This document shows, in pieces, positions 5,965-51,024 of a stretch of 64,000 nt of DNA (its first letter is position 1; each line of letters begins with the position of its first letter). Made by a program: the position numbers and the translations under genes. The notes below the pieces were generated by a model. That model did not search any database. It worked only from the letters and a program-made list of their open reading frames with translations, and was not told where the DNA came from. The DNA lies in the NCBI GenBank assembly GCA_964592525.1, contig CAZQFB010000001.1, forward strand, positions 65,419 through 129,418, given 5' to 3'. The DNA comes from an uncultured Candidatus Saccharibacteria bacterium (GTDB taxonomy: Bacteria; Patescibacteriota; WWE3; CAZQFB01).

Positions 5965-5981
5965 AAAGTTGAATTAAGCGT

Positions 5982-10113: not shown

Positions 10114-12346
10114 ACTTTTTTTTAGCCCGATAACGAGCTCTTACTATGCCAATGGTTAATATTACTAAGATTGGCATCACCATATTAATCAGTTTAATTT
10201 TATTGGTTTGGGTTTCAGTGTTGAAATTAATGAGCGGACGATTTAAATTGGCCTTACTTCTGATACCGATTAATCTTTCATCCTGGGTCATATAATCTAA
10301 GACATTAAGCGTAAAGATAAAGTTACTTTGCGTTCGTTGCAGCATTGAAGGCTCTAAGAAGTTGGCGTCGCCCACGACCATGATTTTGGCTGTTGGATTT
10401 TCCGTGTCTAGAGTGTACTCCTTTTCACCCAAATGGGCTGGGATATCTTCCGTTTTGAATTGAGTGGTATAGCCTCCTGTATAGAGAGCGGCTAATGTAT
10501 AGGGTCCCGCTAAGTCTTCTCTCTTAAAATTTTGTTCCGGAGAAAGGTTAAAAGGTTCTTCTTGGAGAAAACTTTCCTTTGATGATTCCAAGATAGGTAT
10601 TAAGTTTTCTTTATCCGGTGTTAACTCCAAACTACTGACCCAAGGTAACGTAACCGTATCTAATCTGTTTACCGTAATATGTTCCTTCATTCCCTCACCA
10701 ACAACTTTAACCCAAAAAGGGTAGGGGGTGATGATATTCCCAAAACCAGTATTGAAAGTGGCCAGATCTGCTGAAGAATCTAAAACGAGTTTATTGGTTA
10801 AGCCCACCCCAATTTGCTCTAGTAACTGATCCAAACCAGTATTATGGGGTGTAGCCGTAAGGTCATTAGCTACCGCCACACCTTCGGTGGTAATTAACAA
10901 ACCAGTGCCTCTAGTGACTAATTGGTCTAATGTAAATATTTCGTCTTTGGAAAGATCGGTTGGGTTGTGGATGATAATAGCCTTGAGGGCATCGGTGGTG
11001 GGGTTTAAAGACGTGAGCTCGATAAGTTGGGTCGTGTAGAGAGTAGAAAATAGTTCTTGGAGGTCTTGAGCAGTTTCTAAATTAGAGGAGAAGATACCTA
11101 CTACCGGATCAGTTTCCCTTAATAATCTTGTGGTAGCAGCTATGATCTCATATTCTAAGTTATTGGTATTGTTAATTACAGGTAGAACTTCTTTTTTATC
11201 AGCATAGGTAATAAGCATCCCCAAATAGCCGTTACTAACTTGAAAGCGGTCTCTTTCAATTTCATTAAATTGGAGAAGCGGTATGCCTAAGGTTTGTGTT
11301 TCTTGGGCGATAGTAGCTTTTTCTGCTACGTTGATATTTTTAATCACTAAATTACCTTCCGCACTATTTTGCATATCTTGAAGGAGGTCGGCAGCTTGTT
11401 GTTTGACTAAAGCATATTGAGGGGGTAGCTCCGGAGAAAAATAAGTATTAATACTAATAATATCGGGTAATTCTTTGAGGATATTTATTGTTTCTGGAGA
11501 AAGCGAGTTTTGTTTATTTTCGGTTAAATCCCATCTTAGCGGAGATAGGAACACCAAATAATTAAAAGCTAAAGCTAAAGCCAGAATGAGGGCAGCTTGT
11601 ATAGTTGTACTGTGCCAGAAAGAGTGAGTTGTTCTTTTCGTGCGCATGCTAAGTACAACAACATTAAGAGTAATAAATACAATTACTAAAGAAGTGAAAT
11701 AACTAATGTCTCTAAGATCTAATAAGCCTCTTAAACCATTTTCATAATGTGAGGCGGCACCCAGAAATACCGCTATTACTTGAATTATTTCTGGTAGTTG
11801 ACTGGTGATTAAAGTAGAACCCAAAAGATAAATAACGATCGCTAATATTAAGCTGATCATAAAAGCAGCTATCTGATTCTGGGTCAAAGAAGATATTAAT
11901 TGACCTAAAGCTACTAAAGTGGCACTAAATAAGAGAAGGTAAATATATCCAGAAAAAACCGTTCCCCAGCTAAGATTACCTAAAAGAGAAATGCTGAAAG
12001 GAATACTGAACGTCAGGATGACGGTCAGGAATAAGAACAGAAAACAGCCTATAAATTTACCCGCTACTGCTTGAATATTGGTGATAGGTAATGTTAGTAA
12101 CTGCTCGATCGTGCCAGATTTATTTTCCTCCGCCCACAGTCTCATCGTTAATGCCGGGATCATAATTAACAGTAACCAAGGAGCAATATTGAAAAATTCT
12201 CTCATGGAGGCTTGGTTCTGGATAAAAAAGCTGGTCCAAAACAACCAGTTGGTAAATAAAAAGAAGACACTTACAAAAATATATGCGGTGGGTGAATTAA
12301 AATAAAAATTGATTTCCCTTTTAGTTAAAGTTAAAACGGTTTTCAT
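10100..12346 (-). CDS. ABC-2 family permease fused to a GldG-like auxiliary domain
   Basis: The N-terminal roughly 240 aa has multiple hydrophobic helices (ABC-2 permease-like). The C-terminal roughly 480 aa is a periplasmic domain flanked by TM segments, resembling GldG (ABC-type gliding-motility-associated auxiliary component). Its start overlaps the stop of the ABC ATPase (ATGA). Confidence 0.55.
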   Translation of the reverse strand: MKTVLTLTKREINFYFNSPTAYIFVSVFFLFTNWLFWTSFFIQNQASMREFFNIAPWLLLIMIPALTMRLWAEENKSGTIEQLLTLPITNIQAVAGKFIGCFLFLFLTVILTFSIPFSISLLGNLSWGTVFSGYIYLLLFSATLVALGQLISSLTQNQIAAFMISLILAIVIYLLGSTLITSQLPEIIQVIAVFLGAASHYENGLRGLLDLRDISYFTSLVIVFITLNVVVLSMRTKRTTHSFWHSTTIQAALILALALAFNYLVFLSPLRWDLTENKQNSLSPETINILKELPDIISINTYFSPELPPQYALVKQQAADLLQDMQNSAEGNLVIKNINVAEKATIAQETQTLGIPLLQFNEIERDRFQVSNGYLGMLITYADKKEVLPVINNTNNLEYEIIAATTRLLRETDPVVGIFSSNLETAQDLQELFSTLYTTQLIELTSLNPTTDALKAIIIHNPTDLSKDEIFTLDQLVTRGTGLLITTEGVAVANDLTATPHNTGLDQLLEQIGVGLTNKLVLDSSADLATFNTGFGNIITPYPFWVKVVGEGMKEHITVNRLDTVTLPWVSSLELTPDKENLIPILESSKESFLQEEPFNLSPEQNFKREDLAGPYTLAALYTGGYTTQFKTEDIPAHLGEKEYTLDTENPTAKIMVVGDANFLEPSMLQRTQSNFIFTLNVLDYMTQDERLIGIRSKANLNRPLINFNTETQTNKIKLINMVMPILVILTIGIVRARYRAKKKYVFE

Positions 12347-13272
12347 GATTCTTTGGTAGTCAGGTTATGAAAAGTATCTTCTAATGAAGCTTGTTCTTCA
12401 TGTAATTCTAATAATTCAGCTTGGCAATTAACAGCTAGTTTGAAGATTTCGGTTCTGATATCTTCCTGGGAATTAACCTGATATCTAGTTATGCCCTTGC
12501 TGTCCTTTAATTCTTTAATTACAGTGACTCCTTTGAGCTGACCTAACTTATCTTTAGATAAACTGCCTTCCCGCCCTATTTTTATAGATAGAGTGTGCAT
12601 TCCGGAAGATTTTTTCTGTAATTCTTCGAGCGATCCTTCAGCCACAATAGTTCCTTGGTTAATAATTATGACCCGATTACATAAGGCAGCTGCTTCCGGC
12701 AGAATATGAGTACTGATGACAATTGTTTTGGTTTTTCCAATCTCTTTGATTAAATTTCGTATTTCCACAATTTGGTTGGGGTCCAGACCGGCAGTGGGTT
12801 CATCTAAAATTAAAATGTCAGGATTATGGATTAAGGTTTGGGCGAGCCCTAATCTTTGCCGATAACCTTTGGATAATACTGACACTGATTTATTGATGAC
12901 CTCTTTTATTCCGCAAATAGCTGCTACTCTCGTAATGGCGCTTTTGTGGTCTGGGGAGGGTATCTTTCTTAACGCCGCAATGAAATGGAGATATTCACTA
13001 ACCAGCATGTCGGTATAAAGAGGATTTTGTTCAGGTAAATAACCTAAAATCCTTTTTATCTGCAGAGGGTTTTTTTCGACAGTTAAATTATTTATTAATA
13101 CCTGACCTTTAGTGGGACTAATGTAACCAGTGATTATTCTCATGGTAGTTGTTTTACCAGCGCCATTAGGTCCTAAAAATCCCACAATTTCAGAGGGGGT
13201 AACTTTAAAAGAGATATCCTTCAGTACCGTTACTGGTCCAAAGTCTTTGCTGATATTAATAAGTTCAATCAT
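12343..13272 (-). CDS. ABC transporter ATP-binding protein (GldA-like)
   Basis: Walker A GPNGAGKTTTMRII, ABC signature LSKGYRQRLGLAQ, Walker B ILILDEPTAGLD. Confidence 0.85.
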   Translation of the reverse strand: MIELINISKDFGPVTVLKDISFKVTPSEIVGFLGPNGAGKTTTMRIITGYISPTKGQVLINNLTVEKNPLQIKRILGYLPEQNPLYTDMLVSEYLHFIAALRKIPSPDHKSAITRVAAICGIKEVINKSVSVLSKGYRQRLGLAQTLIHNPDILILDEPTAGLDPNQIVEIRNLIKEIGKTKTIVISTHILPEAAALCNRVIIINQGTIVAEGSLEELQKKSSGMHTLSIKIGREGSLSKDKLGQLKGVTVIKELKDSKGITRYQVNSQEDIRTEIFKLAVNCQAELLELHEEQASLEDTFHNLTTKES

Positions 13273-13327: not shown

Positions 13328-13630
13328 ATGTTTGCTGGGATTAATATCCCCTGCTACAATTTCAAAACGATGAAACCACATCTTATTTTTGCCAATCCTC
13401 AAAGATGTACTGGTTGCGGTTTATGTTCTTTACACGCCTACCCCTTATTGAAAGGTCTTGGAGTTTTTTCTCTAGCCCTGTCGCCAATTATTGTGCAACG
13501 TTCCTCCCCTTCTACAGGGTATTATTTTACGGTGCATTTTGATGAAGCTTTAAGTCATGAGCTTTACTCATTGGTTAAAGTATGTCCTCGCGGTTGCTTT
13601 TCTTGGCAAGAGGGGTCTAAGGATGAGTGA
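13328..13630 (+). CDS. Small ferredoxin-like protein with degenerate 4Fe-4S motifs
   Basis: CTGCGLC ... KVCPRGC resembles the layout of 2x[4Fe-4S] ferredoxins encoded next to AOR genes (CxxCxxCxxxCP ... CP), but several Cys ligands are missing. The start could be the internal Met (MKPHL). Confidence 0.35.
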   Translation: MFAGINIPCYNFKTMKPHLIFANPQRCTGCGLCSLHAYPLLKGLGVFSLALSPIIVQRSSPSTGYYFTVHFDEALSHELYSLVKVCPRGCFSWQEGSKDE

Positions 13631-15275
13631 TATTACACAGCATCGGGTGTTGTACCTTGATCTGACTAATCATAGTAGTGAGATTAAGGTGCATTCAGAT
13701 TATTCTGATACCTTAGGTGGTCTTGGTTTAGCGATGGTCTTATTCCACGATTTAGTTGAGAAACAACCCATTATCATCAGCATTGGTCCTTTGACCGGGT
13801 TATTTCCATTTGCGAGTAGTACCTGTGCCCTATACACATCTCCTTTAACACACTCTGTGGGAGAAAGTTATGTTAATGGTTGGTGGGGTGCGTGTATGAA
13901 ATTTGCAAAGTTAGATGCTGTGGTGATTACAGGTGTATCTAAATATCCAGTTTATATTACTATCGCTGAAGATAAAGTTTATTTTAAAGACGCTTCCTTG
14001 CTCTGGGGTTTAGGTACTGGGGACGCTACTAACAAGCTTAGGGAAATGGAAGGTACTCCAGGAATAACTAGTATTGCCGTTATTGGTCAAGCTGGTGAGA
14101 AACAAGTGTGTTTTTCGGAGGTTGTGGTAGATGAAGTATATCGTTTTAAAAGATTTGGGTTGGGTTGCCAGTTTGGTATGAGAGGCTTGAAGGGTATAGT
14201 GTTGTCGGGTTTTGAGGAAATTAAGGTAGCTGATGCGGATAGGTATCAGCAGGTTTATTCTGAACTTAAGACGGCAGTTTTAAATGAGGGTGCCTCTAAA
14301 TTACTGCCTAATTTTATTAGCGAGATATCCTTAGCAGGCTTAAACTATCAACAAGAATGTGCTGGTTTACCTTTTAAAAATTTAAGTTCTACTCGGGCTG
14401 ATTGTTTTCTGGATATAAATAATTTCAACCAATTATTTTCTACCCAGCTGTTTTCTTCTTTTGGGGCACCTCTGCCTGATCTCTTGGCAGTGACCAGTGA
14501 TCGTAGTTGTATCCCCCTGGATTATGAAAGTATTGTGAGTTTGGGTTTTATGTTAGGGATAACCGATATTAAACATATTGTTCAGTTAATTAATACTGCT
14601 CATCAATACGGGTTAGATCCAGTGTCTTTAGGTGCTGCTTTAGCTTATCTTACCGAGTTAAAAGGAATTTCTTATGGTAAGGTTGAAGTTTATCAAACGC
14701 TGCTTGATAGCTTAGTGTCTAAACGAGAAGATTGGGCTATATTATTGAGTAAGGGTGTAATGGCAGCGGTTTCAGAATTTGGTGGTTTTGAGCACACCTT
14801 TATGTTAAATGGTATGGAAGCGGAACCTTTCCATAATGGTTACGCTACTCTTCTTTCGCAACTGTTAAACCCAGCTGTAACGTTAAGACAAGCTGAAGGC
14901 GAGCAAATTGATATTGGTTTGAGGGGTTGTGAGTTTAAAGACGAAGACTTGATCGATTTAATACATTCAAAAATTTTAGCTTCATACTTTTTTGATAGTT
15001 TATTAATTGATTACCCTGCTCGTTCTCTATATGCAGAAGGAGCTTTTGTGAGTAATGCTTTGCGGTCTGTTGGTTTATCTTATAGCCCAGAAAGAGTGGA
15101 AAAGATTATCTTGGGTTTGTATGATTTAAAGAGAGAATTGGTTGCTCAACTGCCACTTAAAATTAGGGACAGGAAATGGTCGCCCAGATTTTTTTCTACT
15201 CCTAGTGCTTATGGTATGTTACGCGAGGATAGAATGGTTAATTTAATTACTTTGTTCCAGAATAAATATCTATGA
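13623..15275 (+). CDS. Aldehyde:ferredoxin oxidoreductase (AOR)-family protein lacking the canonical Fe-S cysteine ligands
   Basis: Clear AFOR_N-like N-terminus (GGLGLAMVL, GPLTG, SPLT, WWGACMKFAKLDAVVITG, PVYITIAEDKVYFKDASLLWG) and FGLGCQFGMRGLKGIVLSG. There are no CxxC/CxxxC motifs in the C-terminal half. The start is taken at the internal MSDITQH. Confidence 0.6.
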   Translation: MSDITQHRVLYLDLTNHSSEIKVHSDYSDTLGGLGLAMVLFHDLVEKQPIIISIGPLTGLFPFASSTCALYTSPLTHSVGESYVNGWWGACMKFAKLDAVVITGVSKYPVYITIAEDKVYFKDASLLWGLGTGDATNKLREMEGTPGITSIAVIGQAGEKQVCFSEVVVDEVYRFKRFGLGCQFGMRGLKGIVLSGFEEIKVADADRYQQVYSELKTAVLNEGASKLLPNFISEISLAGLNYQQECAGLPFKNLSSTRADCFLDINNFNQLFSTQLFSSFGAPLPDLLAVTSDRSCIPLDYESIVSLGFMLGITDIKHIVQLINTAHQYGLDPVSLGAALAYLTELKGISYGKVEVYQTLLDSLVSKREDWAILLSKGVMAAVSEFGGFEHTFMLNGMEAEPFHNGYATLLSQLLNPAVTLRQAEGEQIDIGLRGCEFKDEDLIDLIHSKILASYFFDSLLIDYPARSLYAEGAFVSNALRSVGLSYSPERVEKIILGLYDLKRELVAQLPLKIRDRKWSPRFFSTPSAYGMLREDRMVNLITLFQNKYL

Positions 15276-16300
15276 TTCGAGGTGACCGTCGGCAAATAAA
15301 TTTTAAAATAGTTGTGGTTATTCTTGCTTTATTGTTATTGGTTGTTTTGGTGCTCATTAAAAGAGACCCCCTTGGCTTTGTTCTATCCCCACTAAAAGTG
15401 TTTTCTAAATTATCTGGGGAAGCTTCACTGGTAGAAAAAGAAGGCTATACTCACATCTTATTGGTGGGATTAGACCGTCGTATGACGGATATGACTCCAG
15501 GTGGTCTGAATGATACTTTGGTTGTTGCGTCTATTAGTCCGGAAAAGCAAAGAATTGTGCTGACCACAATACCAAGAGATCTTTGGGTACCAATGAGTGG
15601 TGATTATCAAGGAAAAATAAACTCTGCCTTTGGTTATGGGGGAATTGAAGAAGTTATTAATGTTGTTCGAGGAATATTGGGTATTCCCATTCATTATTAT
15701 GTTTCTGTTGATTTTAAAGGTTTTAAAATGGGAGTTGATATTTTGGGGGGATTAGATGTATATGTCGAGCAATCCTTTGATGATTATAAGTTTCCGATAG
15801 AAGGAAAAGAAGATGCTCCAGAAGAAGCTGATCGTTATGAACACATTCATTTTGATCGTGGTTGGCAGCATATGGATGGTGAAACAGCCCTCCGCTTTGC
15901 GCGTTCCAGAAATGCGGTTGGTCCGGAAGGATCTGATTTTGCACGAAGCGAACGCCAAAAGAAAGTGCTTCTGGCAGCGAAGGAAAAAGCTTTATCTGCT
16001 TCTACGCTGTTTAATCCGGTTAAATTAAAAGAACTGTATGAATTATTTGGAGCTACAGTTGGCACAGATATCACGATCAGTGAAGTGCAAAGCTTATACC
16101 AGTTGGTTCGGGAGATACCTAACGAAAATATTCTTTCCGTGACTGTTGATCATACTTCCAGTTCAGGTCAACGGTTTTTGTATACACCACAAGATTTAAT
16201 GCCTTATGATGGCGCGTGGGTTTTAGTGCCTACTGTTGGTGATTTTAGCGAAATCCAAGAATATCTTAAGCAACTTCTTTTTACAGAATATTCTAATTAA
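15272..16300 (+). CDS. LytR-CpsA-Psr (LCP) family cell-envelope phosphotransferase
   Basis: N-terminal TM segment, HILLVGLDRR ... DTLVVASISPEKQRIVLTTIPRDLWV ... INSAFGYGG, a typical LCP core. Confidence 0.75.
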   Translation: MIRGDRRQINFKIVVVILALLLLVVLVLIKRDPLGFVLSPLKVFSKLSGEASLVEKEGYTHILLVGLDRRMTDMTPGGLNDTLVVASISPEKQRIVLTTIPRDLWVPMSGDYQGKINSAFGYGGIEEVINVVRGILGIPIHYYVSVDFKGFKMGVDILGGLDVYVEQSFDDYKFPIEGKEDAPEEADRYEHIHFDRGWQHMDGETALRFARSRNAVGPEGSDFARSERQKKVLLAAKEKALSASTLFNPVKLKELYELFGATVGTDITISEVQSLYQLVREIPNENILSVTVDHTSSSGQRFLYTPQDLMPYDGAWVLVPTVGDFSEIQEYLKQLLFTEYSN

Positions 16301-16987
16301 ATGTTGTATCTCTATCACGGAGCTGATCCAACTATCAGTCGACGTTTATTAACCGATTTTATCTCTGGGCATGAGCAGAAAAACCCACTACGCCTAGCTG
16401 TTACTGATGTAACATTATCGGCGCTGAAAGAGGTGTTACTACCCCAGCCGATGTTTGGGCAAAAGACACTTCTTATAATTGAAGGCGACCCAGTCAAAAT
16501 TAAAGAGGAAATGCTCTCTTTTCTGGCGACTCCTTCTCCACATGCCGATGTTGTTTTTTGGTTTAGTGATAAGTTAGGGAAAACAGATCAGTTATTTAAA
16601 TTAATCGCTCAAAGAGGGCAGGTGTTTGAAGGAAATGGTGCTGCGGTGCCAGAAGAAATATTTTCTTTTTTAGATAAAGTGTCGCAAAGAGATAAAGTGG
16701 CTATGCAACAAGAGCTGTTATTACTTACCCAACAAGGGTCAGAAGCATATTATTTACTAAGCATGATTATTTGGCAGTATCGTAATCTTCTTGGTGCTCA
16801 CTTTGATACTAAATATATGCGCACTATCCATCCCTATGTTCTCAAAAAAGCTAAAACTGCTCAAAAAAAATTTACTCGTCAAGAACTCTTGCGTCATTAT
16901 CAGTTTTTGTTAGAGTGTGATCGCCTTATTAAGCATGGTACTCTTAGTAGGGATGATGCAATTTTTTCTTTATTATTGAAGTTATGA
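16301..16987 (+). CDS. holA: DNA polymerase III delta subunit (HolA)-like, short form
   Basis: The N-terminal LYLYHG.D motif and overall length/helical C-terminus resemble short HolA proteins. The similarity is weak. Confidence 0.35.
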   Translation: MLYLYHGADPTISRRLLTDFISGHEQKNPLRLAVTDVTLSALKEVLLPQPMFGQKTLLIIEGDPVKIKEEMLSFLATPSPHADVVFWFSDKLGKTDQLFKLIAQRGQVFEGNGAAVPEEIFSFLDKVSQRDKVAMQQELLLLTQQGSEAYYLLSMIIWQYRNLLGAHFDTKYMRTIHPYVLKKAKTAQKKFTRQELLRHYQFLLECDRLIKHGTLSRDDAIFSLLLKL

Positions 16988-17682
16988 TGGAAGTAACAAG
17001 ATACATTAAAAGGACCCCACGTGATTTGGTGGTAGCCGAAAAAAGGAAGGTTCGATATTTCATTAATTTGTTTAGCTCTGTGCTTTTCTTTATGGGTTTG
17101 GTGGTGTTAACTTATCAGTATGTTTCTCCTTTGCAAAGTATGGCTTCCAAAGCAGTTCACCTTAGACCTGTTCCCGATGAGTATTTAAATCAGCTAATCT
17201 CCAGTCACAGGGATTTTGCTTTTTTGGAGTTGCAGAATGAGTTGGAATATCTGGAGGGTAATTACCCACCTGAATTTTCTCTTAGTATTCCGAATTTAGA
17301 GCTTTATGACCTGCGCGTGGAGACCAACAGTCATTCTCTTTCGCCTAATGAGGCTCTAGGTCATTTATCGGGTAGTGCTTATCCTGGTCGTGTGGGGAAA
17401 GTAGTTATTTATGGTCATTCAACGATACCTTTTTTGTTTGACTCCAAGGATTATCGAACCGTTTTTTCTCGCCTTGATAAATTAAATACTGGTAACCTAA
17501 TAACCGTTGATTTTGCCGGGCAGGTTTATACTTATATTGTTAAATCAAACCAAATAAGCCTGCCACAGGAACTAAATTTAAACTCTTTTTCTCGTAATCA
17601 GAGTAACTTGGTACTAATTACTTGTTATCCTTTTGGGTCAACAGAGCAACGGTTGGTAGTGGTTGCTGACTTAGTTAATTAG
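16984..17682 (+). CDS. Sortase-family transpeptidase
   Basis: N-terminal TM segment; LSIPNLELYDLRV; a His motif GKVVIYGHS; FSRLDKLNTGNLITV; the catalytic Cys motif LVLITCYP; a downstream Arg. Confidence 0.75.
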   Translation: MMEVTRYIKRTPRDLVVAEKRKVRYFINLFSSVLFFMGLVVLTYQYVSPLQSMASKAVHLRPVPDEYLNQLISSHRDFAFLELQNELEYLEGNYPPEFSLSIPNLELYDLRVETNSHSLSPNEALGHLSGSAYPGRVGKVVIYGHSTIPFLFDSKDYRTVFSRLDKLNTGNLITVDFAGQVYTYIVKSNQISLPQELNLNSFSRNQSNLVLITCYPFGSTEQRLVVVADLVN

Positions 17683-18536
17683 AGGACGGCTAATTTTAAC
17701 AATTGTTTTCTAAGCCACACTTTAGCTGCAGAATCTCTTTTTTGTACTACGCCCAGGTTAATATTGATTCCCTTGACTAGGTCTTGCTTGGTTAAATCTT
17801 CAATACGTCCTTGAGGCGTTAACTTGATTGTGGGAGAAGGTTGTGATTGCTTGGTATTGATTATAATACTGGCTGTTTCCTCATTGACTCCTATCGCGGA
17901 AATCTCTAATTGATCTGTTTCGTGGGAATAAAAAAAAGGTCCCAGCCAGTTATTAGTGAGGGCGTCTTGGAGATTAATGGAGTAAATCCCTTCTGGGTTA
18001 GTGATAGCTGATAATTGGGAGGAAATACCAGACGTGCCTTGAGCATCAGCATCTTTGATGACCAAATAGACTAAAGCGTTTTCTACCGGTTCATTAGTTA
18101 TATCAATAACTTGACCGAAAACGCGATGTGGCTCCCCCAGATTATTTTTGAAAGCTGTTTTGATCATTGATGTTTTTGATATTTCGTATTGCTGTTTACC
18201 TACGCCAATCAACACCTCATAGACAGTGTTTGGTTGGAGCCCATCAATAGTGAGATGGTGGTTAGTGGCAAGATAGGGAGAAAAATCTTCCCATTGTTGG
18301 TTGTTATTAGTGAGGGTTAGATAACCAGTAGTTGGAATTTCTGTATGCCAAGATACGGTAAGAGCAGTGGCGGTCACGTTGGTTATTCTGACATGACCGG
18401 GTTTTTGGGTAACGTTAGCGGAGGTAAAAAGAATAAGCGCGGTTTTTCCCACGCGGGCAACTGCAAAAGTACCCAGTCCGAGAAAAACTAAAATAAGAAA
18501 AGTTTTAAATCCTTTTTGGGGTGGTTCATAGTTCAT
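17679..18536 (-). CDS. Secreted fibronectin-III / carboxypeptidase-regulatory-like domain protein
   Basis: Signal/TM N-terminus, an FN3-like segment (VTATALTVSWH ... LQPNTVYEV) and GQVIDITNEPVENALVYL (CarboxypepD_reg-like). It overlaps the large surface protein gene by 4 nt. Confidence 0.45.
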   Translation of the reverse strand: MNYEPPQKGFKTFLILVFLGLGTFAVARVGKTALILFTSANVTQKPGHVRITNVTATALTVSWHTEIPTTGYLTLTNNNQQWEDFSPYLATNHHLTIDGLQPNTVYEVLIGVGKQQYEISKTSMIKTAFKNNLGEPHRVFGQVIDITNEPVENALVYLVIKDADAQGTSGISSQLSAITNPEGIYSINLQDALTNNWLGPFFYSHETDQLEISAIGVNEETASIIINTKQSQPSPTIKLTPQGRIEDLTKQDLVKGININLGVVQKRDSAAKVWLRKQLLKLAVL

Positions 18537-20776
18537 CTCTTATTTTTTTCGGTATTGTTATGTCGAGTTAGAAAATAATTAAGACTGGGAAAGATAATTC
18601 CCATCATAACTAAAGCAACGCCAAGATAAGTTAATAATTTTGAGTAGGCAGTTATACCAGTGGCTGGCAAGCTAATAATTACTCCACCGGAGGCTTCGGT
18701 GGCTTCTTTTTGCACAATGGGTACAGTCACTACTGGTGTTTTGAGAGCTGGGGTTTGGGTGATTGTGTTTTCTGGTACTGTCGTTGGGCTCACTGGTGTG
18801 GTGGTGAGGGCTGCGGCTTCAACTTCTGTTTCTGCTGCTGTTTGCGATGCGGCTTCGGCAAAAACCCCATAGGTCGAAAATTTAGTAGTCGTACAGGTGA
18901 CTTGGTGCGCGGTGGTATCCACTTGGCAATTACTTAATTCTTCCCAATAATCTCCATTCCAGCGGTGAATTTTAAGGGACTCTTCGGCTAAACTGGGATT
19001 TAGATCTAGTGGGTTATAGCTCACGGTTATCGCGATTGGTTTTTGGAAAGAAGTGATAGTTGTATTTTCATCTACCAAAGCATCTAGTTCGTAAAAGTTG
19101 CTGCCAACGGCTGTTTTATTAGTTGGTGTACTAGTGCTGTCTATAACAGCTTGTTCTTCAAGTTTCTTAATTTGCATTATGGTATCGGTTTCATGATAGT
19201 CGGTGGGGGCTTCAATCTTAATACTTTCCCCTCCTTCAGTCAGAGAAACCGCACCACCATAACTAGCATTTATCTCGCTACTAGTTTCGGTTAAGGCTTT
19301 AGAATCGCCGATGCATCCGGTGGTAGTAAACATGAAATTACCACTCAATGATTGCTCGTTGTCAACTTTGGACAAGGTTTGGAAGTTATAGGTGGTGCAA
19401 TTAGTAAGACCTTCAAGTGTGACGGTGTGTTCTGTCACAGGAGTATCTAAATCTTTAACTGGGGTTTGGTTAGAATAGGCGCTAGCGATGCCATATTCCA
19501 CTTGAGAGGAGGCTTCTTTATCAGTAGACCAGAGAATGGTAGCTGAATCTTCGGTGATATTTACAGTGGAGACACTCGTAGTATTAAAGTCTTGCACCAA
19601 GCATTCGGCATTAGGGCTGACCGTACCGTTGATAGCTAAACATTCACTAGTAGTAGTTGTACCGAGAATGGTAGTAATGGTAATTTTATCTGTTTTGGCT
19701 GAAGGTGGTACTTCGGCTTCGATTAAAACGTTACTCCAAGTATAAAAGGTGGCGATTGGGGTTTCTCCAATAGTAACAGTGCTTGTTTCTTGAGAAGTAC
19801 CGAAATTGGTACCAATAATTGTCACCGGTGCTTCAGTGGAAATGTTTTTGGGGTGAAAAGATTCAATTTTAGGGCCTAAGTCCCCACTTTCTGGCGCTAC
19901 TATCTCAAACAATTCTGTACTGATTGCAGAACCGTTAGCAGTGTTGACTTGGATTTTTCCAGTGCTGGCGTCTGCTGGTACTAAGACCGTGATGTTGCTA
20001 TTACTCCAGCCTTTAATATCACTTTTGGCGGTTTGTATTTCTCCAAAGGCGATAGTGGCTTCTTTTTGATCTTCCCCAAAGTTTTCACCGGTGATAATGA
20101 CGGTGTTACCTGTGCTACCTCTGGTTGGGTACACGGAACTTATCTTTGGGCTGTTAGTCGTACTCTGACCAGAGATAGTGATGGTAGCATCATTTGGAAT
20201 AAGTAAGATATCTTCACCAGAATCAGTAGTTATCTTAGTGTTTTGAGGGTCAAAGTATAAAGGTGTTTTTTCGGTGGGATTAAGAGCCAGAAACTTAATT
20301 GAGCCGAAAATGGTATCGTCGTTAGCTATGAAGGGTTTGGTACTGTCTGGAGTGACGCCATCTAATCTAATAATAACTTGGTGCTGATTAGTGCCTGGGG
20401 TGATATTGTCAGAGGTATCATTAGTAACATAATTAAGTTCACTAATATTACCAGGTTTGACTTGGACGAGGTCAGCCTTGGTGCCTTGCGAATCAACAAC
20501 TTCAAAAGGAGCAGTATCTGATTCATAGGCGTAAAGAAGGCGTGTTTGAACGATACTGGTAGGGATGCCTCTGGTATTAATCTTGATAGCCACTTCAAAC
20601 TCTTCTCCCACTTCGGCATTAATTACTTGGGGATCTAAGGTGATTGAGGCTATTTGACCCCCATTGCTGGGTGCTGCTGCTCTGTTAATATACCCTGTTT
20701 TTTGGAGCAGAAAAAACACTGTTATTGGTAATGCTATCAGCACTAAGGCAGAAATAATTAACCCAATTCGTCGCAT
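18533..20776 (-). CDS. Large LPXTG-anchored multidomain surface protein (cohesin-like, 2x IPT/TIG, FN3), a sortase substrate
   Basis: N-terminal signal peptide, IPT/TIG-like repeats (PKISSVYPTRGSTGNTVIITGENFG; PKIESFHPKNISTEAPVTIIGTNFG), an FN3-like segment (ITEDSATILWSTD ... TYNFQTLS) and a Thr/Pro-rich stalk. The C-terminal sorting signal is LPATG + hydrophobic segment + RHNNTEKNKR. Confidence 0.7.
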   Translation of the reverse strand: MRRIGLIISALVLIALPITVFFLLQKTGYINRAAAPSNGGQIASITLDPQVINAEVGEEFEVAIKINTRGIPTSIVQTRLLYAYESDTAPFEVVDSQGTKADLVQVKPGNISELNYVTNDTSDNITPGTNQHQVIIRLDGVTPDSTKPFIANDDTIFGSIKFLALNPTEKTPLYFDPQNTKITTDSGEDILLIPNDATITISGQSTTNSPKISSVYPTRGSTGNTVIITGENFGEDQKEATIAFGEIQTAKSDIKGWSNSNITVLVPADASTGKIQVNTANGSAISTELFEIVAPESGDLGPKIESFHPKNISTEAPVTIIGTNFGTSQETSTVTIGETPIATFYTWSNVLIEAEVPPSAKTDKITITTILGTTTTSECLAINGTVSPNAECLVQDFNTTSVSTVNITEDSATILWSTDKEASSQVEYGIASAYSNQTPVKDLDTPVTEHTVTLEGLTNCTTYNFQTLSKVDNEQSLSGNFMFTTTGCIGDSKALTETSSEINASYGGAVSLTEGGESIKIEAPTDYHETDTIMQIKKLEEQAVIDSTSTPTNKTAVGSNFYELDALVDENTTITSFQKPIAITVSYNPLDLNPSLAEESLKIHRWNGDYWEELSNCQVDTTAHQVTCTTTKFSTYGVFAEAASQTAAETEVEAAALTTTPVSPTTVPENTITQTPALKTPVVTVPIVQKEATEASGGVIISLPATGITAYSKLLTYLGVALVMMGIIFPSLNYFLTRHNNTEKNKR

Positions 20777-20849
20777 ACTCTTGGTTTATCCAGTACTAGT
20801 TTTTCTTAATAAAATACTGCCTTGAGTTTAGCATAAATAGTGGTTGGAA

Positions 20850-21077
20850 TTAATTATTGTTAAGGCGTTTTAATTGCTTTAGATATTCTAAATCTAAGGT
20901 GGGTTCTATGGGCTGGGCTAGGTCTAGTATTTCTTGGGAAACATAGATTGAACTGCTGCTGTGGTAAATTTCAAACACTACCCAAGCTATTACGGTAATA
21001 AAAGTGACTATTAGAATGGCAATTAGGTCTTTACTCATTAAGTTATTATGGTGCTGCTTGCAGACTATAAATCTCAA
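20850..21077 (-). CDS. Small single-pass membrane protein (hypothetical)
   Basis: 75-aa ORF with one hydrophobic helix (LIAILIVTFITVIAWVVF), placed between the PilO-like gene and the LPXTG protein gene. Confidence 0.3.
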   Translation of the reverse strand: MRFIVCKQHHNNLMSKDLIAILIVTFITVIAWVVFEIYHSSSSIYVSQEILDLAQPIEPTLDLEYLKQLKRLNNN

Positions 21078-21645
21078 AGGTAAGATGACCTTTAAGCTTT
21101 TCTTGCTGTTTATAATCTCTACTGGTCAAGTTAATATTGGTGAGATGGATCTTTCTTAGGTTAGTTTCCGTTAAGCTAATAAAATCCAAAAAGTCTTGGT
21201 AAGTGCCGGAATAATCTGTTTCGATAGAGGTTGTTACCACAGTGTTGTCGCTTTCAGTTTTTTGATTATGAATCGTTAAATTACTTAAGCTTAGGTTCGT
21301 TTTTACTGCTAAGGTAGTGACAGTGTTTAATATTTCTGGGATTTCTGGTTCGTCTGGGAGGGCTATGTCTAGAAGATAAAGATCGTTTTTAGCCAGTTTA
21401 TATTGGGTTTGAATGAGGGCTAAATTATCCATTTTAGTGTTTAATTGGGCGTCTATTTTGATCAAATCTGCCATTTCCTTTCTTAAGCTTACTATGGTAG
21501 CTAAAGCAGGTCTAATCGCAAAGGCGCCAAATACAATCAAGGCAATTAAAGTCATACCCGCTAGCGTGTAAGCTTTCTTTTGGGGATCCCGTAAATAAGG
21601 CATCACCCCCTTTTGATAATAGAATTGTAAATCCATCGTCATCAT
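21046..21645 (-). CDS. pilO: PilO-like type IV pilus/competence assembly protein
   Basis: Single TM segment followed by a coiled-coil and a C-terminal beta-rich domain. It directly follows, and overlaps by 4 nt, the PilN-like gene. Confidence 0.45.
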   Translation of the reverse strand: MMTMDLQFYYQKGVMPYLRDPQKKAYTLAGMTLIALIVFGAFAIRPALATIVSLRKEMADLIKIDAQLNTKMDNLALIQTQYKLAKNDLYLLDIALPDEPEIPEILNTVTTLAVKTNLSLSNLTIHNQKTESDNTVVTTSIETDYSGTYQDFLDFISLTETNLRKIHLTNINLTSRDYKQQEKLKGHLTFEIYSLQAAP

Positions 21646-22202
21646 GGTGTGTAATATCCCTGCTCAATTTTAATGGTAATAAAAAACAAGTAAGAATCAG
21701 TCAGATAATCGTATTGAGTACTAGTCAGTCTTATTTCTTGAACATCTTCACTAGAGATTAAAGAAGAGATTAATAAAGCAAACGAAGCAGCTGTATCAGC
21801 GATAGCGTTGAATTGAATTTGCTGCGGTTGGAGGTTTATTTTAGTGAACCGTACTTCTTGGGGAGACAGGGCGGATAGTTTGTTTAAACCCTGACTAAAA
21901 AAGATTTTTTCTTGCTCTAATTCTTTGAGGAGCTTAATTTTGTTTTGGTATCTGCGGACATTAGTTTCAAATCTTTTGGAGGTGGCTACACTAGCTGCCT
22001 TGTTTTCAATGTTCTCTTGAAGAGTGGTTATTTGGTAATCTAAGTTAAAGCGAGAGAGCCAGACCAATACTGCTACTAGTTCTGTGATAATAATAATCAC
22101 TCTGCCTACACCCACCATCCAAATAAAAACTTTGCGCGAGCGAGAGTGTTCTTCAAACTTTTTAGAGGGAATTAAATTGATTTCTCTATTTGATGTAGGC
22201 AT
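21642..22202 (-). CDS. pilN: PilN-like type IV pilus/competence assembly protein
   Basis: N-terminal REINLIPS (PilN INLLP-type motif), a basic stretch, a TM helix and a coiled-coil periplasmic domain. Confidence 0.5.
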   Translation of the reverse strand: MPTSNREINLIPSKKFEEHSRSRKVFIWMVGVGRVIIIITELVAVLVWLSRFNLDYQITTLQENIENKAASVATSKRFETNVRRYQNKIKLLKELEQEKIFFSQGLNKLSALSPQEVRFTKINLQPQQIQFNAIADTAASFALLISSLISSEDVQEIRLTSTQYDYLTDSYLFFITIKIEQGYYTP

Positions 22203-22222: not shown

Positions 22223-22474
22223 TTAAGAATCAAGCTTTTTAGCGAGTCTTGCTTTTAGGCGAGCAGCTTTTTGGGGGTGTAGGACCTTATTTTTAGCTGC
22301 CTTGTCTATTATTTTTTGGAGTCTGGTAAAAACTTGACCTACCCCGTCCTTATTTTTAATAGCTTCTTCGAGCGCACGTTTTTCTTGGTGTAAAGTCTTT
22401 TTCCAGACATAGTTCTGCTGCCTGTGTTTTAGTGCTTGTTTAGCCCTTTTACGAGCTGATTGGATATTTGCCAT
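22223..22474 (-). CDS. rpsT: 30S ribosomal protein S20
   Basis: MANIQSARKRAKQALKHRQ ... basic helical 83-aa protein typical of S20. Confidence 0.8.
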   Translation of the reverse strand: MANIQSARKRAKQALKHRQQNYVWKKTLHQEKRALEEAIKNKDGVGQVFTRLQKIIDKAAKNKVLHPQKAARLKARLAKKLDS

Positions 22475-22509: not shown

Positions 22510-24222
22510 GTGGCATGGTATGCTGAACGCCGTATGGTTAAAGCTTTTTTCCGTAATGGGGCTTCGGTTATTCTGCGTCGTCAATCAACGATTTTATCGG
22601 CTGCCAGTGTATTGATGTTGGCGGCGTTACTTTCGGCTGTACTTGGCTTTGTGCGTTGGAGAATATTATTTACTTATTTCGGTAATTCTTCAGATTTGGG
22701 TATCTTTTTGTTAGCTGATCGTATTCCCAGTTTTATTTTTAATATTATGATTTCTGGTACTTTTGCTTCGGTTTTTATTCCTGTTTTTTCCTCGTGGCGT
22801 AGGCAAAATGAAACAGAAGCTTGGCAAATAGCGAGAACCATGTTTTCTGTAATGATGCTTATTTTTAGCTTTCTTATTTTAGCTCTTTTGATTGGTGCGA
22901 GACCAATTTCCCAACTAATTTCTGTGAACCAATTAAATGAGGAACAGTTGTCGTTGATGGTTAAATTATTAAGGCTAATGCTTTTTGCCCAGTTAGGTTT
23001 GGTAGCTTCAGCTTTTTTTACGGGTTTGTTGCATTCCTTCCAACATTTTATTATCCCCGCCCTAGCGCCTGTTTTTTATTGGGCAAGTTCGATTTTGTTT
23101 ATCATATATTTTGTAGATGAATTGGGTATTGCGGCGGCGGCTTGGGGCATGATTTTGGGCTCTTTACTGCATGTACTGGTCCAAATTCCAATAGCTAAAA
23201 AACTGGGTTTTACGCTAGCCCCTTTGTTTGAAATAAGAAGTTATGGTTTTAGGCAAATTTTAAAATTAATGGGTCCCCGAATGTTAGGTCAAATTGCCCC
23301 TGAAGTAGCAAGGTTGGTGGAAGGGTCTTTAGCGGTTTCAATCACCATTTTTTCTACGGCGCTTCTTACTGCTGCTCAAACTTTATATTACTTTCCTATT
23401 ACTTTGTTTGCGGTGGCTATCGCGCAAGCCGCCTTTCCGTTTCTGGCGGATAAAGCTATGGAGAATGACCTGCAAGATTTTAAGAAAACCTTTATTGCTT
23501 CTTTTCACCAAACCTTATTTTTTATGGTCCCCTTGGTTTTTATTGTGGTAGTTTTGAGACTGCCTGCGGTGAGATTAGTGTTTGGTTCGGATGAGTTTCG
23601 ATGGGAGTCTACGGTCATGACAGGTTACACGTTAGCTTACCTAGCGATTGGTATGTTAGCCCAATCTTTGGTCCATCTGTTAGTTAGAAGTTTCTACGCG
23701 CTTCAGGATACGGTGACCCCCTTGAAAGCTGGGGTGGTAATGTCTCTGGTGCAAGTGGGCTTGGGGTTATATCTAATTACTAAAGAAGGGTTACCTGTTT
23801 GGGGTTTGGCTCTTGCCTATGCTATTGCGGTTAATATTCAAGCTCTAATTTTGTTTAGGGCTTTATATAAAAAAATTGGTGGTTTTGGCTTGAGAGTTTT
23901 TTTCCGACCAGTGGTGAGAATGCTTACGGCTGGTTTTGTAACTGGAGCTTTGACCTATATGGTTTTTAAGATGTTGGACCGTTATTCTTGGGGTCATAAT
24001 CTCTCTTTAGGTCCCATCCAACTCCCCACCACTTTATATAACGTGATTATTGACACTAGTTTTACTATAAATTTAATCTACTTTACCTTTATTGTGGGTT
24101 GTTTTAGCTTAGGGATGTATTTATTGTTGACTTATCTTATGGGCGTGGAAGAGATCAGGGTGATTATGAGAATGATTGGCGAGAGATTAGCCCGTGTTAG
24201 CTTAAAAAGCTCGCAGAGGTAA
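22510..24222 (+). CDS. murJ: Lipid II flippase MurJ (MviN)
   Basis: About 14 predicted TM helices, 570 aa, MurJ-like N-terminus (RNGASVILRRQSTILSAASVLMLAALLSAVLGFVRWRIL). Start is GTG at 22510 or ATG at 22534. Confidence 0.75.
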   Translation: MAWYAERRMVKAFFRNGASVILRRQSTILSAASVLMLAALLSAVLGFVRWRILFTYFGNSSDLGIFLLADRIPSFIFNIMISGTFASVFIPVFSSWRRQNETEAWQIARTMFSVMMLIFSFLILALLIGARPISQLISVNQLNEEQLSLMVKLLRLMLFAQLGLVASAFFTGLLHSFQHFIIPALAPVFYWASSILFIIYFVDELGIAAAAWGMILGSLLHVLVQIPIAKKLGFTLAPLFEIRSYGFRQILKLMGPRMLGQIAPEVARLVEGSLAVSITIFSTALLTAAQTLYYFPITLFAVAIAQAAFPFLADKAMENDLQDFKKTFIASFHQTLFFMVPLVFIVVVLRLPAVRLVFGSDEFRWESTVMTGYTLAYLAIGMLAQSLVHLLVRSFYALQDTVTPLKAGVVMSLVQVGLGLYLITKEGLPVWGLALAYAIAVNIQALILFRALYKKIGGFGLRVFFRPVVRMLTAGFVTGALTYMVFKMLDRYSWGHNLSLGPIQLPTTLYNVIIDTSFTINLIYFTFIVGCFSLGMYLLLTYLMGVEEIRVIMRMIGERLARVSLKSSQR

Positions 24223-26957: not shown

Positions 26958-28020
26958 GGGAATAGTGTAACAGAAATTAAGAGTGGGCTAACAGAACTCT
27001 ATACAACTCTAAAATCAGGGAAGATTCCTTCAAAGCATTCAGAGGGGTGTATTTACGAGGATTATAACCTGTAACTTTGTATATGTTTTTAGATATTTAC
27101 CTTGCAAGCATAGTTTTTGAACTCTAAGTAGATTTGAGTTAGTAAAAGACGGTGGACCAGAGGATCATTTTAGGACCGTGTTGTTTGCTTATTTGTGAAG
27201 AAATTAAAAAGGGTGAGCGAGGTGATAGCTATGGATACTAGGTCAAAAAGAAAAGTATAAGGTGGTTTTTTTTGTGACGCTTGTTATTACGAAGGATTCA
27301 GAGCTAGCTTTAACATTAACTTAAAGCCCATAGATAAATTTAAGTTAGTTAAGGTTTAGTTTCTTGCTGAAATTACTACTGGTTTTTAAGCAATCAACAT
27401 TATTCACCACAGCGCTAGTGGTATGTAAATTGAGGTGCTTGAGCTTTTTGTAATGGTTGGTACTCCTGTAATAGATAGAATTATAGTAATGCTTGTAATA
27501 ATTATAATGAATTTATTATTATGACGTTTGTAATTATTGGGTTGTTGGGAGTTCTCTGCGTGTTCGCATAGGTACTGATATATTAATTCAGTTAATTAAT
27601 TAACACGGTAATACAGTCTTTTTGTATCCTGTGATTAACTGTTTTTATTAGTTATTTTAAAAACGCTTATTCTCCCACCTGGCCGGTTTTGGTAGTGTTT
27701 TGAGCCTCCCCGCTTTCACTTATCAGGTTTGATAGTGGTTCTGTTTCTATTTATCCACCTAGCTGTGTTGTCAGTATATTTTGCTTCCATTACTCACCTA
27801 ACCGGTTGGGTTCTGGTTTGTGCTTCTTGATTTTTGTTTTAACATTAAGGCTACAAAGCCATGTTTAACCGAATTAGCTTTTAGTGACTTGCTTTAAACA
27901 ACTTTTTAAAATAATAAGTTTGAGCAGTAGTAATTAAACAAGGCATCCTCTGCGTTTTAAACGCTAGAGCTTCTTTATTTTCTCTTTCTTGCCCCAAAGC
28001 AGTATGCTTGTGAAAAGACC

Positions 28021-28057
28021 TTGACACCCCTTAGCACGTGCAATAGTATAGTGCCAA
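28021..28057 (+). promoter_or_regulatory. Sigma70-like promoter overlapping a CIRCE-like HrcA operator upstream of hrcA
   Basis: TTGACA at 28021-28026 with a TAGTAT/TATAGT -10 candidate 17-20 nt downstream. TTAGCAC-N13-GTGCCAA (28031-28057) has the same spacing as the CIRCE consensus TTAGCACTC-N9-GAGTGCTAA, with 7/9 matches per half-site. Confidence 0.55.
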
Positions 28058-28069
28058 ATAGATATTAAT

Positions 28070-50986: not shown

Positions 50987-51024
50987 ATTGAGAGCTTTGG
51001 TTGCCGAGCTTATTTATCGGCGGT

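Follow-up and report, generated by a model that had tools for sequence, protein, structure and literature searches.

A pilN-pilO gene block packed with genes for FN3 and sorting-signal surface proteins in a WWE3 genome and related Patescibacteria

We analysed 64,000 nt of DNA from an uncultured Candidatus Saccharibacteria bacterium (GTDB lineage Patescibacteriota; WWE3; GenBank assembly GCA_964592525.1, contig CAZQFB010000001.1, positions 65,419 to 129,418 of the forward strand), the whole of which is called the window below. On its minus strand, genes for two type IV pilus (T4P) assembly proteins, PilN and PilO, follow rpsT and are themselves followed by genes for a small membrane protein, a 747-aa surface protein with a cell-wall sorting signal and a 285-aa FN3 protein, the last of which is convergent with a sortase gene. 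PilN and PilO truly belong to the families of the type IVa pilus (T4aP) assembly ('alignment') subcomplex, and the block formed by rpsT, pilN, pilO and the small membrane protein gene recurs, divergent from murJ, across several lineages of the Candidate Phyla Radiation (CPR). With a probability of about 0.5, we read the arrangement as a conserved variant of the locus that expresses the pilus assembly subcomplex along with rpsT and wall-anchored Ig-like proteins, which would act at the wall jointly with the pilus base.

The locus had been noticed in a preliminary description made from the letters of the window, and all of the open reading frames (ORFs), motifs and overlaps named there were reproduced in our ORF list. 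Its interpretation as a whole was partly supported: the identity of the two pilus proteins and the sorting signal stood, and the proposed fusion of T4P and sortase systems into one apparatus, like the proposed role in host attachment, is conjectural. The features of the locus, given as window coordinates, strand, identity and basis, are as follows.

22510-24222, plus: murJ, lipid II flippase (Pfam MurJ, 235.6 bits)
22223-22474, minus: rpsT, ribosomal protein S20, which opens the minus-strand unit (Pfam Ribosomal_S20p, 64.9 bits)
21642-22202, minus: PilN family protein, 186 aa (Pfam PF05137)
21046-21645, minus: PilO family protein, 199 aa (Pfam PF04350)
20850-21038, minus: small bitopic membrane protein, 62 aa (homologue alignment and reading of the start codon)
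18533-20776, minus: exported multidomain surface protein, 747 aa (Pfam TIG, fn3)
18536-18670, minus: cell-wall sorting signal of the 747-aa protein (read from the translation)
17679-18536, minus: protein with a transmembrane segment, an FN3 domain and a transthyretin-like domain (TM-FN3 protein), 285 aa (Pfam fn3)
16984-17682, plus: sortase, 232 aa, with an N-terminal transmembrane helix (Pfam Sortase)

Identity of PilN and PilO and packing of the locus

The PilN protein scored 26.5 bits against Pfam PF05137 (gathering cutoff 22.8), and its orthologue in the locus of the closest relative (L001) scored 33.8 bits. Its N-terminus, MPTSNREINLIPS, carries a cytoplasmic INL(I/L)P motif and is followed by one transmembrane helix, a coiled coil and the C-terminal PilN domain. 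The INL[LI]P motif is kept in an alignment of 25 homologues and aligns with the N-terminal RINLLP of Myxococcus xanthus PilN; judged by its sequence, it is of the PilM-binding type. A family profile built from 21 homologues matched M. xanthus PilN in register (residues 64-149 against 61-146) with an E value of 1.1e-4.

The PilO protein scored 44.1 bits against PF04350 (cutoff 22), and a profile of 36 homologues matched the PilO proteins of M. xanthus (E 4.8e-15) and Pseudomonas aeruginosa (E 5.7e-13). Its AlphaFold2 (AF2) model, with a mean predicted local distance difference test (pLDDT) score of 90.4, has a helix from residue 21 to 95 followed by a beta-alpha-beta core, and combines the transmembrane helix, long coiled coil and ferredoxin-like core fold of PilO. 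When this model was searched with Foldseek, the four best matches in PDB were all PilO structures, including 3jc8 PilO (E 5e-9), 2rjz (2.8e-6) and 5uvr (TM-score 0.80 on the target). The PilN and PilO calls of the preliminary description thus passed tests by hidden Markov model (HMM), profile and fold, and neither protein failed the T4P models.

The genes are tightly spaced. According to the ORF list, pilN and pilO overlap by 4 nt, as do the genes of the 747-aa and 285-aa proteins, and rpsT ends 20 nt before pilN; in the DNA, the small membrane protein gene most likely starts 7 nt after the pilO stop. The widest of these gaps, 73 nt (20777-20849), lies between the small gene and the 747-aa gene. 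The sortase gene converges on the 285-aa gene, and their 3' ends overlap by 4 nt. The overlaps and short gaps suggest a single transcript, and the unit from rpsT to the 285-aa gene is probably co-transcribed. A consensus scan found no convincing terminator within this unit. Over the window as a whole, promoter consensus matches showed no excess over shuffled sequence (18 against 21.7 expected), terminator-like sites numbered 18 against 9.6 expected with none marking a convincing operon boundary, and Rfam and tRNA scans gave no match. All five proteins of the locus were singletons in a collection of 15 billion proteins.

The position of rpsT is an observation in its own right. It lies 20 nt from pilN in the window and abuts or overlaps pilN in related loci (L002, L005, L009-L011 and L013), a hint that the translation of a ribosomal protein gene is coupled to that of a pilus-machine gene.

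The small membrane protein had been described as 75 aa long, a size that is probably too large. The mechanical ORF (20850-21077) starts at a TTG, and the ATG at 21038 is the most likely start, giving a 62-aa protein that begins MSKDLIAIL as in its homologues. The protein belongs to no Pfam or NCBIfam family. An MSKDxxxIL start and a W..FE.Y...P.LD motif are conserved in its family alignment, and homologues found by phmmer stand directly after pilO in L001-L004, L006, L007, L009, L010, L012, L014-L016, L019, L020, L022, L023, L025, L026 and L029. ORFs of 61-99 aa occupy the same place in L032-L035, and a small membrane protein gene follows pilO in nearly all related loci.

Conservation of the block and the whereabouts of other pilus genes

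An exhaustive HMMER search with PilO gave 1455 cluster representatives, of which 150 were listed. Loci were searched with a 9-sequence PilO alignment and collected around close PilO relatives from metagenomes and from species-representative genomes (WWE3, Gottesmanbacteria, 'Patescibacteria group' and metagenome-assembled genomes labelled Saccharibacteria). More distant contexts were read for P0100, P0150 and P0175, which rank 73rd, 123rd and 148th of the 150 listed.

The arrangement of murJ on one strand and rpsT-pilN-pilO-small membrane protein gene on the other was found in all of the loci collected, either complete or up to the point where the contig ends. The border is formed by (lepA)-murJ on the opposite strand, with murJ divergent from rpsT-pilN in most loci. 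In most of them rpsT also stands directly upstream of pilN, often overlapping it, and pilN and pilO are paired in every related locus whose contig extends upstream of pilO. The closest relative, L001, has the order murJ (minus strand), rpsT, PilN, PilO, the 62-aa gene, an inserted short-chain dehydrogenase gene, a 733-aa protein and a 284-aa FN3 protein.

Seven lineages encode, downstream of the block on the same strand, proteins with an N-terminal hydrophobic segment, Ig-like domains (FN3, PKD, Big_13 or TIG), a Pro/Thr-rich linker and a C-terminal [LIV]Px[TA]G motif with a hydrophobic tail. The sorting motifs in the window and in related loci are as follows.

Window: LPATG
L001: IPVTG
L010: VPDTG
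L007: VPLAG, VPTAG
L025: LPNAG, LPAAG
L026: IPVAG, LPNAG
L029: LPDAG, LPDAG
L035: VPEAG

Of 59 ORFs lying on the same strand and no more than 9 kb downstream of pilO, 13 bore tails of this type, whereas 200 other ORFs, drawn from these loci and from the window, bore none (Fisher p 1.5e-9, uncorrected for the relatedness of the loci). As in the window, a convergent gene for a LytR-CpsA-Psr (LCP) protein closes the locus in L007, L025, L026 and L035, and a convergent sortase gene closes the WWE3 locus L002. The arrangement is not accidental: it recurs across several CPR lineages with sorting-signal proteins strongly enriched downstream.

The preliminary description had stated that pilM and pilins are absent. 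No pilin was found among the window ORFs of at least 110 aa; the statement on pilM is complicated by a protein of the FtsA/PilM superfamily.

51001-52242, plus: FtsA/PilM-superfamily actin-fold protein, 413 aa (Pfam FtsA, 50 bits; PilM_2, 30.2 bits, cutoff 27)

The database version of this protein starts 12 codons later (401 aa). Its best PDB matches were M. xanthus PilM (E 1e-5) and Thermus thermophilus PilM (5e-5), followed by FtsA (4e-3). It is the only PilM candidate in the window and lies 29 kb from pilN in a non-pilus context: its gene is overlapped and followed by one for a 530-aa bitopic membrane protein with a weak Baseplate_J-like match, and the pair (51001-53827) is inserted with alaS on one side and ruvX-mltG-secD-secF-recJ on the other. 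In Gracilibacteria a homologous pair, whose actin-fold member NCBI names PilM, follows alr-ddl and precedes a gene for an 829-aa unknown protein; other homologues are FtsA proteins beside ftsZ. Since the homologues adjoin alr-ddl or ftsZ and not pilus genes, the protein could not be assigned as the missing PilM; the pair may be a CPR-specific actin-like protein and membrane partner tied to wall synthesis or division.

In the loci examined around the block, no PilM-like protein, PilB/PilT Walker motif or prepilin N-terminus was found. A PilM homologue led instead to a Kerfeldbacteria locus, L036 (7989-17858), which is a canonical CPR pilus operon with the order PilM, a 371-aa DVNLIPS protein, a 218-aa PilO-like protein, a protein with a transmembrane segment and two FN3 domains (fn3, 36 bits), PilB, PilT, PilC and pilin. 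The PilO-like protein matched our PilO profile with an E value of 1.2e-11 while scoring below the Pfam cutoff, and the 371-aa protein, to go by its internal DVNLIPS, is a probable divergent PilN missed by Pfam. A membrane FN3 protein next to PilO therefore also occurs within a bona fide T4P operon. In L036 the pilus operon is followed by an 875-aa protein containing CarboxypepD_reg.

PilB, PilT, PilC, PilM, PilN and PilO co-localise in many CPR genomes (PMC6744442). In a closed Microgenomates genome, a single T4P locus was reported with PilA, minor pilins, PilD, PilB, PilT, PilC and PilM, and PilN and PilO are not mentioned (PMC7143001), which is consistent with pilN and pilO being encoded elsewhere.

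Surface proteins and sortase

The 747-aa protein begins with a hydrophobic signal or anchor (residues 2-26, a helix in the AF2 model), which fits an N-terminal export signal, and continues with a cohesin-like region (~35-205), two IPT/TIG domains (~207-390), an FN3 domain (~395-485), a beta-rich region (~495-645), a Thr/Pro/Ala-rich linker and the C-terminal sorting signal. Pfam matches were TIG (60.4 bits in two stretches), Pur_ac_phosph_N (32.3) and fn3 (17.8), and in the AF2 model of the full-length protein the two TIG domains and FN3 were confident and the remainder, with the N-terminal and 488-577 regions, low. The domain composition first proposed was accordingly sustained for two TIG domains and FN3, while the cohesin-like label found no Pfam Cohesin match and is supported indirectly, as described below.

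The C-terminus reads SLPATG-ITAYSKLLTYLGVALVMMGIIFPSLNYFL-TRHNNTEKNKR, with LPATG at residues 703-707 (nt 18656-18670) and 29 mostly hydrophobic residues between LPATG and the basic tail. No other ORF of the 64-kb window has such a tail. The one full-length orthologue, the 733-aa protein of L001 (P0007; 44% identity over 100% of the length), ends in IPVTG, a helix and RSAQRTKKDHY. The sorting signal is therefore conserved in the orthologue, as motif, transmembrane helix and basic tail, and the contrary outcome envisaged in the preliminary description did not arise.

The 285-aa protein has an N-terminal transmembrane segment, an FN3 domain and a transthyretin-like (CarboxypepD_reg-like) domain and lacks a sorting signal (Pfam fn3, 25.4 bits, cutoff 25; Pur_ac_phosph_N, 28.2; CarboxypepD_reg, 22.3, below the cutoff of 32.3). 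By BLASTP, its residues ~10-259 matched FN3 proteins of L007, L025, L026 and L029 over a homology of ~230 residues spanning the transmembrane segment, FN3 and the second domain. These homologues stand directly after the small membrane protein gene in Gottesmanbacteria-type loci, and there they bear an anchor tail; matches were also obtained to proteins in L002 and L001. The 285-aa gene is no mere terminal addition; it is the most conserved of the downstream genes, and its product is a conserved TM-FN3 component of the locus.

The sortase belongs to a second set of genes, on the plus strand, that meets the pilN-pilO unit head-on and includes the following members upstream of it.

13557-15275, plus: aldehyde:ferredoxin oxidoreductase-like protein, AFOR (ORF list)
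15272-16300, plus: LCP glycopolymer ligase (Pfam LytR_cpsA_psr, 121 bits)
16301-16987, plus: holA, DNA polymerase III delta-like (Pfam DNA_pol3_delta_C, 44 bits)

The four genes AFOR-LCP-holA-sortase are packed head-to-tail with overlaps of 4, 0 and 4 nt, the sortase being the last. This position at the end of an AFOR-LCP-holA-sortase operon gives it the look of a sortase for anchoring in general, not of one dedicated to the locus. As an apparent operon, the set is an odd mixture of metabolism, wall attachment and replication.

As proposed, a single sortase with a TLxTC-type motif (NLVLITCYP) is convergent with the locus, scoring 84.4 bits against Pfam Sortase (PF04203) and overlapping it by 4 nt at the 3' end; it is the only Sortase-domain protein among all window ORFs of at least 110 aa. 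Its abutting the operon proved not to be a general rule, since a sortase is absent from the available part of L001. The segments GHS..., LITCYP and QRLVV align with the His, Cys and Arg of a class C structure, so that the catalytic triad is intact, and the closest solved structures are class C (E 5e-10). The protein passes the generic NCBIfam model TIGR01076 (55.3 bits, cutoff 39.35), but none of the NCBIfam models for classes A to F reaches its cutoff: class D gave 58.7 and 56.6 bits (cutoffs 140 and 165), class C 53.4 (160), class E 38.7 (160) and class F 27.1 (166). The sequence contains no DPW-, DPF- or DPY-type lid motif of class C and no C-terminal membrane helix.

Compared with the housekeeping sortase and LPXTG proteins of Firmicutes and Actinobacteria, the His-Cys-Arg triad and N-terminal anchor of the sortase are alike, as are the export signal, LPATG motif, helix and basic tail of the substrate. 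The differences are the lack of fit to an NCBIfam class A to F model, the LPxAG, VPxAG and IPxTG variants in related loci, and the packing of the substrate with pilus-machine genes. Sortase is near-ubiquitous in Microgenomates (PMC6744442). It is plausible that the sortase of the window is specific for LPATG and links the 747-aa protein to the wall.

Readings of the arrangement

If the subcomplex acts at the wall together with anchored partners, a subset of CPR/Patescibacteria would carry a core-genome operon of rpsT, pilN, pilO, the 62-aa membrane protein gene and surface protein genes, with murJ on one side and a convergent LCP and/or sortase gene on the other, and pilN and pilO would be encoded apart from the locus for the pilus ATPase, platform and pilin. 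A cytoplasmic partner would be recruited through the N-terminal INLLP motif of PilN. The genes behind pilO would supply Sec-exported, beta-sandwich-rich proteins, namely the conserved TM-FN3-transthyretin-like protein and lineage-variable Ig-like, TIG or cohesin-like proteins, and the single neighbouring sortase would cleave the [LIV]Px[TA]G signal of at least one of them and join it covalently to peptidoglycan. The pilus membrane ring would be co-produced in this way with wall-anchored partners that hold the machine in place or prolong it across the wall, present adhesive modules where the pili emerge, or do both. Such functional coupling may extend to physical contact of PilN and PilO with the downstream proteins, and the subcomplex may serve a pilus whose other parts are made elsewhere in the genome.

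The block resembles the PilM-N-O(-P-Q) genes of diderm T4aP systems (M. xanthus 3JC8; P. aeruginosa 2RJZ/5UVR) in having adjacent, overlap-coupled genes for bitopic PilN and PilO with an INLLP N-terminus, coiled coils, a ferredoxin-like domain and profile or fold matches to those structures, and in the membrane-anchored or envelope beta-sandwich proteins encoded after pilO. It differs in that rpsT and not pilM lies upstream, no PilP lipoprotein or secretin is encoded, an additional 62-aa membrane protein is present, the downstream proteins are of FN3, TIG and Ig-like type with one sortase substrate, and the block stands apart from pilB, pilC, pilT, pilD and the pilins. It shares with the T4aP of monoderms such as Streptococcus sanguinis and Clostridia a monoderm-type envelope without a secretin, in whose machine PilM, PilN and PilO are expected (PMC6916266). 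The pil genes of monoderms, however, are clustered, whereas our block is detached. Their PilO is also long (56.6 kDa in S. sanguinis) and has an extra, unexplained domain for which a part in anchoring the machine to the wall or in crossing it has been speculated (PMC6916266), whereas the PilO of the window is short (199 aa) and wall-anchored proteins are encoded in trans. The same protein families make up the T4P loci of CPR (TM7x loci 1 and 2, PMC11623550; PMC6744442; L036), and the membrane FN3 protein encoded after the PilO-like gene of L036 recalls the TM-FN3 protein in the locus type of the window. Those loci nevertheless join PilM-N-O with PilB, PilT, PilC and pilins, and ours joins PilN and PilO with rpsT, murJ, sorting-signal proteins and LCP or sortase. 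The packing of pilN and pilO with a sortase substrate is thus non-standard, as first suggested, when set against the clustered PilM-N-O and PilB/C/D/T loci (PMC6916266, PMC6744442).

Several findings weigh against a subcomplex working with anchored partners. Neither the window (all ORFs of at least 110 aa) nor the loci examined around the block yielded a pilus ATPase, platform protein, prepilin peptidase or pilin, a result that does not extend to the organism as a whole, so that it is only by family membership that the block is tied to a pilus. Five or six lineages keep pilN, pilO and the small membrane protein gene but have unrelated genes downstream (recJ/secDF in L003 and L004, rpoB in L006, and others in L005 and L016), and the surface proteins are hence not obligatory partners. 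The downstream proteins vary strongly by lineage, a trait of adhesins and not usually of machine parts, and the phylogenetic relatedness of the loci means that the figure of 13/59 against 0/200 overstates independence. No sortase gene is present in the available flank of L001, and no Pfam or NCBIfam anchor model matched the LPATG tail at E <= 1, although HMMER filters easily lose such short models.

The main rival is a displaced subcomplex of an ordinary T4P that is a neighbour, without coupling, of fast-evolving wall adhesins or wall proteins gathered in an envelope neighbourhood and sharing a strong constitutive promoter with rpsT, an explanation that we regard as possible, if tentative. It would account for the lineages without surface proteins downstream, for domain content that is lineage-specific (TIG and cohesin-like here, Big_13, PKD or unknown elsewhere), for a sortase that belongs to the AFOR-LCP-holA-sortase operon and is not adjacent in L001, and for the clustering of envelope genes (murJ, LCP, FemAB) around the locus. 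It sits less well with the enrichment of sorting-signal ORFs, seen in at least four divergent lineages, with the gene overlaps and short gaps that suggest one transcript, and with the homologous TM-FN3 protein kept beside the block and the TM-FN3 protein after PilO in a canonical T4P operon.

A bolder form of the coupling, in which the 62-aa, TM-FN3 and sortase-anchored Ig-like proteins are the counterpart of PilP and PilQ and tether the PilN-PilO ring covalently to peptidoglycan, seems to us unlikely. In these CPR bacteria, which have a wall and no outer membrane, the partners would then bind the PilN-PilO ring, secure the pilus machine at the wall and form the lining of its path across it, and constitutive co-expression with rpsT would point to a housekeeping envelope structure.

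Compatible with each of the other readings, and judged rather more doubtful, is the idea that the 747-aa protein is an anchoring scaffoldin on which dockerin-bearing partners dock. In sortase-anchored cohesin scaffoldins such as Ruminococcus flavefaciens ScaE, a cohesin-type module and a C-terminal LPXTG anchor form a docking platform on the wall. By phmmer, the N-terminal domain of the 747-aa protein matched a Pfam Cohesin-positive protein of L002 with an E value of 4.5e-4, and a mixed profile found cellulosomal cohesins in PDB, a result biased by the true cohesins with which the profile was seeded. Residues ~35-205, on the other hand, gave no Pfam Cohesin match and have an AF2 pLDDT of ~30, and the window differs from ScaE-type systems in its weak cohesin assignment, in having no cellulosome context and in containing no dockerin-like segment. 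Two Pfam Cohesin proteins are found in L002 (9436-13197) at the same locus position, and dockerin-like C-terminal repeats (DFNLDSKVNSIDHDYI, DLNYDGKVSLYDYGYL) occur in downstream surface proteins of L002 (835 aa) and L032 (636 aa; 4394-6304). Among all ORFs examined, such segments were confined to these two proteins and were called by pattern match, not by HMM.

We think it improbable that the block is a PilN/PilO-like scaffold outside pilus assembly, perhaps working with the 51001-52242 protein as an envelope machine for surface-protein export or sortase positioning. No T4P gene lies beside the block in any locus examined around it, the block always stands amid wall-synthesis genes (murJ, LCP), and both the PilM-like gene of the window and its Gracilibacteria homologue adjoin wall genes (mltG; alr-ddl). 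A precedent of a kind exists in Clostridium perfringens, for which a T2SS-like employment of T4P parts has been proposed and in which mutants in pilM, pilN, pilO and other T4P genes secrete less Bsa protein (BsaC, and in pilN and pilO mutants also BsaA oligomers; PMC11580942). That system likewise links T4P genes to export of surface or matrix proteins in a monoderm and has a sortase gene beside the cargo operon, but the bsa operon is not joined to pilN and pilO, and BsaA and BsaB (strain 13) lack LPXTG and are TasA-like rather than FN3/TIG proteins (PMC11580942). Against a scaffold of this sort, the PilN and PilO families are otherwise T4aP-specific, PilM, PilN and PilO belonging to the assembly machine of monoderms (PMC6916266); the 51001-52242 protein is equally close to FtsA proteins encoded by ftsZ; CPR genomes in general possess T4P ATPases and pilins (PMC6744442); and the Microgenomates T4P locus with PilM and without PilN and PilO (PMC7143001) suggests that the block completes the machine.

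A Gram-positive type pilus with the 747-aa protein as pilin polymerised by a class C sortase, which the class C structures nearest to the sortase and the tandem Ig-like domains of the substrate might recall, is largely refuted and extremely improbable, given a class C score far below its cutoff (53.4 against 160), the missing lid motif and C-terminal membrane helix, TIG and FN3 domains in place of a YPK pilin motif and CnaB/SpaA-type domains, and one sorting-signal protein with one sortase in the window. The donor-strand-exchange Pam pili of CPR (bioRxiv 10.64898/2026.03.03.709456) were also considered, as a CPR-specific filament with Ig-like proteins and membrane-anchored accessories. They were rejected, since there the components include FimC/PapD-like chaperones, the neighbourhood is that of ATP synthase, and PilN and PilO are not among the components and neighbours described in the part consulted.

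Other observations concern the rest of the window. GC skew is +0.13 to +0.29 over most of the window (plus strand), genes from 28 to 62 kb are almost all on the plus strand, and the skew recalls the strong strand compositional disparity of a closed Microgenomates genome (PMC7143001). Near the start of the window, a gene for a UvrD/PD-(D/E)XK (AddA-like) helicase-nuclease is directly preceded by a leucine-rich-repeat ORF (129-494, plus; 121 aa). A stretch of 1.1 kb (26958-28069) between a restriction-endonuclease-like gene and hrcA has no ORF of at least 110 aa, no Rfam match and no tRNA. The genes at 9139-13272 (minus) encode an ABC ATPase, a fused ABC-2 permease/ABC_transp_aux (GldG-like) protein and a DUF4340 protein, which together form a gliding-motility-associated type of ABC export module, unexpected in a CPR genome.

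The components of the locus are all of known kinds, and their conserved combination and the 62-aa protein appear to be undescribed in the searchable literature; we found no description of pilN and pilO joined to sortase substrates or FN3 proteins, although coverage was incomplete and novelty is not proven by it. Of the organelles by which CPR episymbionts make contact with their hosts, type IV pili have the best support, and the arrangement connects them with sortase anchoring, two systems that are usually handled separately. For genome annotation, murJ divergent from rpsT-pilN-pilO-small membrane protein gene is a practical synteny marker for pilN, pilO and surface proteins in CPR genomes. 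Were the coupling only positional, annotation would still be corrected, with pilN and pilO to be sought outside the T4P locus in these lineages. How the pilus machine of monoderms is fixed to peptidoglycan and how it crosses the wall is an acknowledged open question (PMC6916266), and the locus type names candidates for the link between machine and wall in the 62-aa membrane protein, the conserved TM-FN3 protein and the sortase-anchored Ig-like proteins. If these proteins were indeed the counterpart of PilP and PilQ, they would answer how monoderm T4P anchor to and cross the wall.

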